Positions 6,820-33,449 are shown, counted from the first letter of the stretch. The stretch: 58,085 bases of DNA from an uncultured Bacilli bacterium (GCA_934085875.1 CAKOHQ010000001.1:1-58085), one strand, 5' to 3'. Translations and numbers: made by a program. Notes: generated from the letters alone by a model not told the origin.

Positions 6820-7602
6820 ATGTTTATAGAAGCTGTTATAATAATTATATTAATATTTATTGTGCTTGAGGTTACAGGAAGTATTAGTTTAAATAAATTT
6901 ATTAAAGATAATCAAGAATATTTTAAAACATTAAAAGAAAGTGATTATGAATTTTTATTAAAAGCAAGATATGGAGATGGAATAGATTCTGATAGATTAT
7001 TTTCTGGAAGAATTAGAGATGGTGCTATTGTAATGGTACTTTGTATCTTCTTATTTATAAATGATTTAGATTATACTAAAGTTATTGTTTCAATTATTGC
7101 AGGTTTTGGAATGTTTAAATTGAGTTATATTAAGTTGAAAAGTTATTATAAAGCTCATTTACATGAAATTGATTCTATGCTTCCATATTATTTAAAAAGT
7201 TTAGAAATATTAATACAACATTATACTGTTCCTGTTGCAATTGGTAAAAGTATAGAAGATGCTCCTAAGATATTTCAAGAAGGTTTAAAAGAGTTGTTAC
7301 AGAAAATTAATGCAGGTGATTCTAGTATTACACCTTATATGGATTTTGCTAAAGAGTATCCTGTTCGAGATTCTATGAGAATGATGAGACTTTTATATAG
7401 ATTGGGTCTTGGAAGTCAAGAAAGAAAGCAAGAACAATTACTTCAATTTTCTAGATCTATTTCTAGTTTACAACAAAAGGCAAGAGAGACAAGATATAAA
7501 AATAGACTTGAAAAAATGGAAAGTAAAACAATGGTTATGTTGGTTTGTACTGGTGTTGGTGTAATGTTATTATTAATTATTTCAATAATGAATATGTTTT
7601 AG
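6820..7602 (+). CDS. TadC-like polytopic membrane protein (T2SS-F-type platform)
   Basis: Same topology class as the preceding gene. The soluble middle segment contains IDSMLPYYLKSLEILIQ. Assigned from operon position. Confidence 0.5.
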   Translation: MFIEAVIIIILIFIVLEVTGSISLNKFIKDNQEYFKTLKESDYEFLLKARYGDGIDSDRLFSGRIRDGAIVMVLCIFLFINDLDYTKVIVSIIAGFGMFKLSYIKLKSYYKAHLHEIDSMLPYYLKSLEILIQHYTVPVAIGKSIEDAPKIFQEGLKELLQKINAGDSSITPYMDFAKEYPVRDSMRMMRLLYRLGLGSQERKQEQLLQFSRSISSLQQKARETRYKNRLEKMESKTMVMLVCTGVGVMLLLIISIMNMF

Positions 7603-27057: not shown

Positions 27058-27506
27058 ACATATTTGTTTGTGTTTGTTACATAGTATATAATGTATTATA
27101 TTTAATTTTGTATTTTATAATTTATGCTTTGTATATTAAAAATACTTGTATTTTAAATATAATATGATATAATTTAATTGTGATAAGTTTACTTGTCAAA
27201 TTAAAAAGAGATATTTAATCCAGCAAAATTAGGTGTCTCCTTAGTATTTTGTTTTTTGTAAGTTAGCACCTACATATGATGAGTAGGTGTTATTTTTTAA
27301 TCCTTGAAGTTCATTAAACGTTCTAATACTATCAATATTAATATATTTTTTTACATATTTATTTACATTTGTTACATAATATATAATGTATTGTATTTAA
27401 TTTTGTATTTTAAATTTATGCTTTATATATTAAAAATACTTGTATTTTAAATACAATATGATATAATTTAGTTGTGATAAGTTTACTTGTCAAATTAAAA
27501 AGAGAT
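27051..27506 (+). repeat. Two direct copies of about 160 bp (27051-27212 and 27346-27506), period about 295 bp
   Basis: Near-identical strings TTTTTTTACATATTT...TACTTGTATTTTAAATA.AATATGATATAATTTA.TTGTGATAAGTTTACTTGTCAAATTAAAAAGAGATA. Confidence 0.9.
27180..27298 (+). ncRNA. sRNA, family B copy 1 (partner ORF truncated)
   Basis: TTGTAT (27146) - 16 nt - TGaTATAAT (27165-27173). Terminator CACCTAC-N8-GTAGGTG plus a U-run (27268-27298). Contains GGUGUCUCCUUAG (an anti-SD-like UCUCC). Confidence 0.55.
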
Positions 27507-27578
27507 ACAATTTTGGCTTAGATGTATCTCCACAATGTGGGTTGCACCTAATTATATAGGTGCTTTTATTTTTATTTT
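27474..27578 (+). ncRNA. sRNA, family B copy 2 (antitoxin candidate)
   Basis: TTGTAT (27440) - 16 nt - TGaTATAAT (27459-27467). Terminator GCACCTA-ATTATA-TAGGTGC plus a U-run, shared with the convergent ORF transcript. Confidence 0.55.
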
Positions 27579-27652
27579 AATATGATTGCAAGGACTACAA
27601 TGATGAAAGGAATTAATGAAAGTATTAATACAACTGCCATTAAGTATTCCAT
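27572..27652 (-). CDS. 26-aa hydrophobic peptide (Fst-like type I toxin candidate, family B)
   Basis: Product MEYLMAVVLILSLIPFIIVVLAIILK. Transcription unit TTGTAA-17-TATAAT (27782-27754). The 5' UTR segment ACCUCC can pair with the SD GAGGAGGU. The stop lies 8 nt from the bidirectional terminator. No SD sits directly before this ATG; the strong SD serves an overlapping frame starting at 27686. Confidence 0.45.
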   Translation of the reverse strand: MEYLMAVVLILSLIPFIIVVLAIILK

Positions 27653-27884
27653 TTTTTAATGTAGATAATAATTTATATGCTTTCATACCATCACCTCCTC
27701 ATACATATAAATATGTATTGTGGAGGTACACCTATAATTGCATCTCTGATATAATTATATAATATAAAAATCAACATTACAATAAACATCTATATAAAAT
27801 AATAGAAAATGTTTGTTAAAAATAAAATTGTTTTTTTAGTATAAAATTGATTTAATGATGAACACTATATAATGGTGATTTATA

Positions 27885-32873: not shown

Positions 32874-33129
32874 TTCCTTTATTTTTATATTTAATTATTT
32901 GTCAACCATTTTATATCGTTAACTCAATTTAATTATAATATATTTTTTATTGTTCGACAATAAATACTTGAGATAATTATATTAAAATATGAATATGTAT
33001 TTTATTATAATAAAATAAAATTAATAAAATATAATATTAATGATATTGTTTGACTTTGTATAAGGTCTTATATATAATATCAAGTACACAACTTTATTTG
33101 ATTTTTTAGAATGTTGTGTTATAATTTAA

Positions 33130-33254
33130 GTGATAGGAAGTTCTATCATATAAATATTTTTTGGACACAAAAAGAGTTGCTTAATATTCGTCGTTAAGTA
33201 CTTTCAGTCCAATTTGTTCTGTGGGTACCTAAATGAGTTTGGTACCTGTTTTTT
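33130..33254 (+). ncRNA. sRNA, family B copy 3 (antitoxin candidate)
   Basis: TTGATT (33098) - 16 nt - TGtTATAAT (33117-33125). The 5' end GUGAUAGG is as in the 27-kb copies. Terminator GGTACC-N11-GGTACC plus U6. A second promoter, TTGACT-17-TATAAT, lies at 33050-33078. Confidence 0.55.
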
Positions 33255-33318
33255 AATCCTTGTTGAAAAGTATTTTAAGTAGTATTAATATCACTACTAA
33301 GATTACTAAGTAATCCAT
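33253..33318 (-). CDS. 21-aa hydrophobic peptide (type I toxin candidate, family B)
   Basis: Product MDYLVILVVILILLKILFNKD. GGAAGGA lies 7 nt upstream of the ATG. Transcription unit TTGTAT-17-TATAAT (33429-33401). The stop overlaps the shared terminator. Confidence 0.45.
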   Translation of the reverse strand: MDYLVILVVILILLKILFNKD

Positions 33319-33449
33319 TTATTATTCCTTCCATAGGACCACCTCCTTCCACAAAAGTTGAGAGAGGTTGAGAGTACCTAACTTAAGCAACTCAATTGGT
33401 ATTATAATATATATTATATAATAATACAACGTTAAAATAGAGGTGTTTT

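Follow-up and report, generated by a model that had tools for sequence, protein, structure and literature searches.

In the aapA/IsoA system of Helicobacter pylori, a long-range contact of the 5' end with the 3' end keeps the full-length toxin mRNA inert, and successive structures sequester the Shine-Dalgarno sequence (SD). In hok/mok/sok, translation of mok matters while its product does not, and the full-length mRNA stays inert owing to a 5'-3' clamp (tac/fbi; PMC9841398). In bsrG/SR4, the antisense RNA binds at the 3' end, with an effect on decay as well as on translation (PMC3834814). Here we analyse a locus at positions 33050-33430 of a 58,085-nucleotide (nt) stretch of DNA from an uncultured Bacilli bacterium (GCA_934085875.1, CAKOHQ010000001.1:1-58085; hereafter the window, meaning the whole stretch). 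With moderate confidence, we consider this locus an intact member of an undescribed chromosomal family resembling type I toxin-antitoxin (TA) systems, found in small-genome, AT-rich gut Bacilli and combining a mok-like leader, a 5'-3' fold-back and a 3' antisense RNA.

TA-type genes are tiny, unannotated and lineage-specific, and almost nothing is known of them in gut Bacilli that have reduced genomes and are represented only by metagenome-assembled genomes (MAGs). The host of the window is such a very AT-rich, uncultured gut bacterium, with a genome of 1.19 Mb, 23.8% GC and 67 contigs. The family described here joins the leader and 5'-3' fold-back of enterobacterial hok/mok with the 3'-overlapping antisense RNA of Bacillus systems, which, if true, would be a convergent reuse of the same RNA logic. 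Its leaders also form a natural variant series for leader control of a toxin start: long, 19 codons, or 5 codons abutting the toxin ATG. Sequence comparison allowed us to resolve the two overlapping frames of the locus, and it points to conservation of the leader frame and to a covariation-supported 5'-3' pairing.

All of the elements that an earlier note had listed at this locus were found at the coordinates it gave, by reading of the sequence, from the open reading frame (ORF) list or by a promoter scan (Table 1). The layout also appears convergent, as that note claimed: a candidate small RNA (sRNA) gene on the + strand faces a 21-aa hydrophobic ORF on the - strand. The - strand further carries a strong SD (SD1), read from the sequence as GGAAGGAGGTGG and also written GGAAGGAGGUGG, which precedes the ATG (ATG1) of an overlapping polar frame, the leader ORF1. 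The start codon of the hydrophobic, toxin-like ORF lies a short distance downstream and is called start2 below.

The module is not confined to the window. Four sister species carry it in the same place, with 92.7-97.7% identity, and blastn found matches in 18/401 sampled genomes of the same bacterial family, in 16 genera. A motif scan of species-representative genomes gave 29 stretches, mostly of uncultured Bacilli, Tenericutes or Erysipelotrichaceae, from human (Hadza), rabbit, mouse and rumen samples. Further copies came from metagenome contigs. We count ~45 distinct homologous loci, from at least 16 genera of gut Bacilli/Tenericutes MAGs; this count excludes the chance matches L082, L088, L093, L096 and L099. 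When read, the sequences of L088 and L099 lay inside ordinary genes.

The hydrophobic peptide, MDYLVILVVILILLKILFNKD, consists of a ~16-residue aliphatic core and a charged C-terminus. Its homologues all encode M[DE]YL[IV].L..[IL]L…, with a length of 19-24 aa and usually K or D at the end. Among 32 distinct homologous ORFs, the variability at codon positions 1, 2 and 3 of the hydrophobic frame was 1.02, 0.41 and 1.37 bits, respectively. The position that varies least serves the polar frame as wobble position, which is the opposite of the pattern expected for a coding polar frame. In addition, the two substitutions in the overlap among five orthologues leave the hydrophobic peptide unchanged and alter the polar one. 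Start2 is ATG, GTG or TTG in every true family member, as determined by a scan without a start-codon requirement, and reading of the sequences showed that an upstream stop (TGA or TAA) closes the hydrophobic frame in most loci. The earlier note had argued for selection on the hydrophobic frame, and had named a frame-specific conservation test as a means of refuting this. That argument is borne out by the coding-type codon-position variability, the constant presence of a start codon at start2 and the conserved motif, and the conservation test favours the hydrophobic frame. Judged by these comparisons, the hydrophobic frame is the conserved protein. With 21 residues, it belongs with the short hydrophobic membrane-type ORFs (< ~60 aa) typical of type I toxins. 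Neither frame matched Pfam or NCBIfam, and at E ≤ 10 these databases gave no hit, apart from chance-level ones of the paralogue to domains of unknown function.

The polar frame is conserved in a different manner. SD1 is near-invariant in all family loci, and ATG1 likewise nearly invariant. The mean predicted pairing to the canonical 16S tail is -21.6 kcal/mol for SD1 and -8.4 kcal/mol for the purine-rich stretch before start2. In scans that allowed every spacing, the offset from ATG1 to start2 was 10, 13, 16 or 19 nt in 20/20 independent lineages (16 at the window locus), always 1 mod 3, a constant phase of +1. The single exception is the sister species G004, in which a 2-nt insertion makes the leader MERKK-TAA, directly abutting the toxin ATG; on the sequence, this TAAATG junction is a termination-reinitiation layout. 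Within the overlap, the leader frame consists of NNT codons where it crosses the hydrophobic core, so no stop is possible there. Beyond the core, over the same stretch of 20 lineages, the leader frame has 4 stops and the third frame 36, while shuffled sequences gave 36.6 ± 5.7 stops and none of 2000 was as low as the leader frame. In at least 16 loci, the leader ends exactly at the UGA (or UAA) of an invariant motif in the 3' untranslated region (3'UTR), GGAC-UGA-G, and the length up to this stop varies in steps of three. Leaders in other genera typically have 43-59 codons, as compared to 19 at the window locus; the TAA at codon 20 that shortens this leader is common to the sister species G007, G008 and G009.

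A genetic code in which UGA specifies Trp would remove the conserved stop of the leader. This possibility was rejected: the sole tRNA-Trp found has the anticodon CCA, there are two release-factor genes with an RF-1 domain, and TGA is the stop of 102 long ORFs. The genetic code is the standard one.

Unlike its start and phase, the amino acid sequence of the polar frame is not maintained. The peptide varies from 5 to 67 aa with 36% column identity and has M1 and one G as its sole invariant residues. Gene finders nevertheless call this frame, as 43-74-aa hypothetical proteins that fall into 24 clusters, none of them named (P0001-P0024), and miss the conserved peptide; the protein-cluster database takes queries of 40 aa and more, so that this search covered the polar frame only. 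The earlier note had proposed that the strong SD serves the overlapping polar frame, which agrees with the conservation of SD, ATG and phase. Together with the unconserved peptide, these features also speak for the leader-ORF or coupling arrangement that it offered as one option. The leader frame thus appears to be translated, while its product is unlikely to matter, as for mok in hok/sok.

A conserved SD1/ATG1 phase with an unconserved peptide is suggestive of an overlapping leader of the mok type. As in hok/mok/sok of plasmid R1 and E. coli chromosomes, an out-of-frame leader ORF overlaps the toxin start and is served by an effective SD. The leader here, however, is mostly open to the conserved UGA of the 3'UTR, whereas such an extension is dispensable for mok. 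Further differences are that the family has no Hok/Gef match in Pfam, that its peptide has 19-24 aa as compared to 52, and that its host belongs to a Gram-positive-type lineage.

Two observations concern the ribosome-binding region itself. The segment AAGGAGGUGGUCC in the SD region (33336-33350, - strand) is almost a full complement of the canonical 16S rRNA 3' tail GGAUCACCUCCUU, with one G·U pair. The GGUCC that follows SD1 is a candidate extension of the SD:16S pairing, judged against the canonical tail only, as the MAG lacks the 16S 3' end; the same GGUCC is predicted to pair with GGACU of the 3'UTR.

The predicted structure of the toxin mRNA provides several layers of closure. The full-length mRNA of the window locus (G000) folds with -64.1 kcal/mol (z = -5.6), and no shuffled sequence folded as well. 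With the identity among the sister species and the conservation of the sRNA part, this fold sets the module apart from a chance arrangement. An upstream anti-SD pairs with SD1 in the minimum free energy (MFE) folds of G000 and of divergent homologues, and the corresponding CCU:AGG helix is 96% paired in the alignment-based fold (alifold). Start2 is occluded by a hairpin that is more stable than synonymous recodings in 14/19 lineages (mean z -2.5), in two registers; by this measure, the hairpin is selected against synonymous recoding. Finally, the first 21 nt of the toxin mRNA are complementary to a segment ~200 nt downstream, past the terminator hairpin of the sRNA gene. In an alignment of 25 loci, 97.9% of the cells of the two 5'-3' helices are paired, as compared to 33-46% in slid controls. 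Compensatory changes occur in 16/30 pairs, and 0/500 shuffles reached the observed values. For helix 1, the count of pairs with both sides changed stems partly from two subfamilies that lie one register apart, and the pairs hold in each sequence. The non-Watson-Crick pairs in these helices are mostly G·U on the toxin strand, which argues for pairing in the toxin mRNA rather than mere copying.

Both the sequestration of the leader SD by an upstream anti-SD and the long-range 5'-3' fold-back, here with two covariation-supported helices, have counterparts in hok/mok/sok, the latter in tac/fbi. The 5'-3' closure is also shared with aapA/IsoA, which is mentioned in PMC9841398. On the other hand, the antisense RNA of aapA/IsoA targets the 5' region, the system has no leader ORF, and its peptide is unrelated.

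The 3' end of the toxin mRNA bears on the relation between the two transcripts. Since this end is predicted to pair with the 5' end, the toxin mRNA must read through the hairpin, so that the sRNA would be antisense to the toxin 3'UTR instead of merely meeting the mRNA at the terminator. The earlier note had placed the toxin stop inside a terminator shared by the two genes. In fact, the stop lies outside the hairpin, in the adjoining U-tract (on the toxin strand an A-tract), and the U-run is present on the sRNA strand only, which does not fit a bidirectional terminator. As a consequence of the 5'-3' complementarity, the sRNA carries a same-sense near-copy of the mRNA 5'UTR, and this near-copy was found locus by locus across the family.

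The candidate sRNA itself has the features of a gene. Its predicted transcript begins GUGAUAGG and ends GGUACC-N11-GGUACC-U6; a terminator scan missed this end because the 11-nt loop exceeds 8 nt. The sRNA folds with -28.3 kcal/mol (z = -2.6), and its consensus fold in the family is made of stems rich in wobble pairs. The stem has a mean stability of -10.4 kcal/mol in the sRNA sense versus -3.9 kcal/mol on the toxin strand and uses G·U pairs; it is thus predicted to be stable in the sRNA sense only. The sRNA part is 96.7-99.2% identical across the sister species, whereas the neighbouring gene, at its third codon positions, reaches 79-91%. The sRNA promoter is invariant or nearly so in the four sister species, and a -10 box stands at the equivalent place in 19/19 lineages inspected. 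With a promoter, body and terminator on the opposite strand, a strand-specific stem and conservation above neutral sites, the locus appears to contain a gene for an antisense RNA that is complementary to the toxin mRNA, as type I TA systems do.

As for the toxin promoter proposed in the earlier note, TTGTAT-17-TATAAT on the - strand, the -10 box is present, while the -35 box is weak. The latter matches at 3/6 positions only, for which reason the scan left the promoter unlisted. The homologues have a TTGACA- or TAGACA-like -35 box, a 17-nt spacer and TATAAT, 6-9 nt ahead of the conserved 5' block.

A convergent antisense RNA over the 3' end of the toxin mRNA is the arrangement of bsrG/SR4, as well as txpA/RatA, bsrE/SR5 and yonT/SR6 of Bacillus subtilis, and in this group, too, the SD is held in a helix. 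However, the peptide is unrelated, and the Bacillus systems have neither a leader ORF nor a described pairing of the 5' and 3' ends. Rfam at gathering threshold identified only tRNAs in the window. Below threshold, the BsrG model (RF01412) matched 33245-33367 on the - strand with 25.8 bits versus a gathering score of 55 (E ~2e-4), covering the anti-SD/SD hairpin, the ORF and the A-tract; at E ≤ 0.1, the model did not match any of 10 homologous loci. Membership in BsrG was therefore rejected, and the match is taken as a resemblance of architecture only. In contrast to hok/mok/sok, the antisense RNA is encoded at the 3'UTR and would pair with it, not with the initiation region of the leader. The locus also resembles Fst with RNA I-RNA II (par of pAD1), where a short hydrophobic-peptide mRNA and a small RNA converge at a terminator hairpin and 5' structure limits translation. 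It differs in that there is no Fst match in Pfam and that the U-run of the hairpin is confined to one strand. Furthermore, its repeats are inverted in the DNA, so that the sRNA copy has the same sense as the mRNA 5'UTR, whereas the direct repeats of par give a complementary copy.

Co-folding of the sRNA with the mRNA gave a ΔΔG of -80 to -99 kcal/mol; in the predicted complex, the 5' end is freed and SD1 is still paired. The 3'UTR motif UUGGACUGAG can pair either with the anti-SD CUCAGUCCAA or with GGUCC beside ATG1. In most loci, the alternative fold, with the anti-SD on the 3'UTR motif and SD1 set free, comes within 0-3.3 kcal/mol of the optimum. With two folds so nearly equal, the sRNA could also shut translation indirectly, as SR4 does on bsrG (PMC3834814). 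Pairing of the sRNA body in trans with the SD1/ATG1 region was considered and rejected: the duplexes were no better than those of shuffled sRNAs (mean z -0.67).

Copies of the module elsewhere in the window and in related genomes differ in number and integrity. A paralogue at 27572-27790 has the same +1 phase, with 34 nt from ATG1 to start2 and a leader of 39 codons. At 27140-27345 lies a relic in which the sRNA is kept and the 5' part of the toxin gene is lost, only its 3' end (…ILILIVLERLMNFKD and the stop) being left; this 27.2-kb toxin is intact in G007 and G009 (MEYLILLLLILIVLERLMNFKD). G013, a genome of the same genus, has several copies (L013, L021, L035 and L037), some of them in tandem ~431-434 nt apart, which all encode MDYLVIYAVIL[VI]LLIKFLKKD. 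In L052 (G120), the toxin is frameshifted (MEYLIINSIRRK), while SD1/ATG1 and the sRNA region are retained; its close relative L083 encodes an intact MEYLIILIIILVFTDEIINSIRRK. The module had no blastn match in the phage and plasmid collections, and the single pattern hit in a viral contig is a chance match, so an origin from a mobile element was rejected.

We infer the following course of events. The - strand mRNA of ~225 nt would yield the 21-aa hydrophobic peptide from the second ATG. As full-length RNA it would be closed by the anti-SD on SD1, the start hairpin and the 5'-3' clamp of two long-range helices. The amino acids of the leader, whose frame lies at +1 to that of the toxin, would be irrelevant and its translation would matter, as with mok: ribosomes loading at SD1/ATG1 would melt the start2 hairpin and thereby permit initiation at the toxin start, which has a weak purine-rich SD. 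The sRNA would pair perfectly over ~90 nt of the 3'UTR, to form a ~90-bp duplex suitable as an RNase III-type substrate. Its binding would free the 5' end while SD1 stays closed, so that the toxin mRNA would be both destabilised and silenced. Of this reading, the anatomy of the sequence, its conservation, the statistics of the frames and the covariation were observed; that the RNAs are transcribed, that the peptide is toxic, that the two frames are coupled and how the mRNA decays are inferences.

Several points weigh against it. Transcription, translation and toxicity of the locus are so far predictions from the DNA. The 3' end of the toxin mRNA is a predicted one, and the toxin-strand hairpin before its U-run is weak in the models (mean -3.9 kcal/mol). 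Simple mok-like coupling fails to explain that the leader is open for ~30 codons more in most lineages. In addition, the window locus has a 19-codon leader and has lost the 5'UTR element CUCAGUCC that other genera keep; as both the long leader and this element are lost, the G000 lineage may work differently from the family norm. Lastly, positive coupling and occlusion are indistinguishable from sequence alone. We also entertain, as a tentative and rather unlikely extension that would be new for type I systems, that leader translation, 5'-3' closure and 3' antisense binding are mutually exclusive. The sRNA would then capture an 'anti-anti-SD' ~150 nt downstream and in this way silence translation at the 5' end, and the mRNA would be reopened or protected by ribosomes that complete the leader. 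Bearing on this, most genera keep the leader open through the toxin ORF and the hairpin complementary to the sRNA terminator, to the UGA of UUGGACUGAG.

Occlusion deserves attention since an open leader beyond the toxin suits a decoy better than coupling of the mok type, which needs translation only to the toxin start. Ribosomes at SD1/ATG1 would cover the toxin start, cross it in a different frame and hold toxin synthesis down, and toxin would be made only when leader translation falls. That the two starts lie 10-19 nt apart, within one ribosome footprint, that SD1 is far stronger than the stretch before start2, and that selection maintains an open leader across the entire toxin ORF and past it all accord with such a role. 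However, the reinitiation layout of G004 should raise toxin translation, yet the toxin there is intact and amino-acid identical. The G000 lineage moreover tolerates a 19-codon leader, and the start2 hairpin would already limit initiation. Taken together, these data make occlusion unlikely. Quite improbable is an explanation without a toxin, namely that the peptide is a small membrane protein that does no harm and has a regulatory or structural role, and that a cis-antisense RNA tunes its mRNA. It would agree with the lack of a match to a known toxin family, with a toxicity that is itself a prediction, and with the syntenic, vertical conservation of the locus in five species. TA-like behaviour, on the other hand, is suggested by the patchy copy number with tandem arrays in G013, the antisense gene left at 27.2 kb after loss of its peptide gene, and the frameshifted copy L052. 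These features, and a translation closed off in several ways (by the anti-SD, the start hairpin and the 5'-3' clamp), are characteristic of loci for type I toxins and uncommon among small proteins with housekeeping roles.

The remaining alternatives give ORF1 a protein product. Dual coding, in which a product of typically 43-59 aa would be functional, for example as partner or antidote of the peptide, could account for a frame that stays open and in phase over multiple-of-three indels, even past the toxin stop, and for its being called by gene finders in 24 unnamed clusters. It is very hard to reconcile with the 36% column identity, in which only M1 and one G are invariant, with the ORF1 wobble position being the least variable in the overlap, and with a frame that differs between lineages relative to the terminator hairpin. 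Furthermore, ORF1 is cut to 19 and 5 codons in the genus of G000, while the rest of the module is conserved. A programmed +1 frameshift fusing the leader N-terminus to the hydrophobic frame, with a product from ATG1, would accord with the constant +1 phase and the strong SD just upstream, which are reminiscent of prfB-type shifts. Its probability is negligible, and we rejected it: no slippery site between ATG1 and start2 is conserved in the family loci, most of them have a stop in the toxin frame upstream of start2, start2 is always a start codon, and the G004 leader ends with TAA just before the ATG.

Table 1. Features of the locus, with positions counted from the first nucleotide of the window
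Feature	Position	Strand	Remarks
sRNA promoter TTGATT-16-TGtTATAAT	33098..33125	+	consensus scan 10/12 plus extended TG
Upstream promoter-like site TTGACT-17-TATAAT	33050..33078	+	11/12 match; outside the conserved module
Candidate antisense sRNA	~33131..33254	+	~125 nt; predicted transcription start within ±3 nt
sRNA 5' hairpin	33131-33148	+	predicted fold
sRNA long stem-loop UUGGAC...GUCCAA	33161-33212	+	predicted fold
sRNA terminator hairpin	33223-33247	+	followed by U6, 33249-33254
Terminator repeat GGTACC-N11-GGTACC + T6	33224-33254	+	folds as terminator
Toxin promoter TTGTAT-17-TATAAT (putative)	33401..33429	-	-10 TATAAT at 33406-33401; read from sequence
Full-length toxin mRNA (predicted)	33170..33394	-	~225 nt; 3' limit from conserved pairing and U-run
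mRNA 5' end, blocks A and B, GAGUUGCUUAA GUUAGGUACU	33373..33393	-	predicted to pair with own 3' end
Anti-SD AACCUC in 5'UTR, predicted partner of SD1	33364..33369	-	MFE folds
SD1 GGAAGGAGGUGGUCC	33336..33350	-	ends 1 nt before ATG1
Leader ORF1 MEGIINGLLSNLSSDINTT then TAA	33275..33334	-	ATG1 33334-33332; 19 codons here
Toxin-like ORF MDYLVILVVILILLKILFNKD, 21 aa	33253..33318	-	start2 = ATG 33318-33316; ORF list
Start2 hairpin GGAUUAC-UUA-GUAAUCU	33300..33316	-	from G of start2; MFE; predicted to occlude the toxin start
mRNA 3' end	33174..33202	-	B' 33193-33202, A' 33174-33184; complement of sRNA stem-loop
U-run after A'	33169-33173	-	conserved

Upstream of the sRNA promoter, the promoter-like site at 33050-33078 is present in G007, G008 and G009, and the G004 alignment fails upstream of ~33086. 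This lineage-specific site may give rise to a longer sRNA isoform. An inverted repeat, ACACAAC-N21-GTTGTGT (33086-33118, + strand), encloses the -35 box of the sRNA promoter and bounds, on the left, the block that all five species share. Elsewhere in the same genome, contig C7 carries at 7335-7412 (- strand) another short ORF for a hydrophobic peptide, MDWLIISLLLVIVVYVLASISNQMC; upstream of it and in frame lies an ATG (MEARTIGLLIIG…) preceded by a GGAGG-like site. This ORF may represent a further small-peptide locus.

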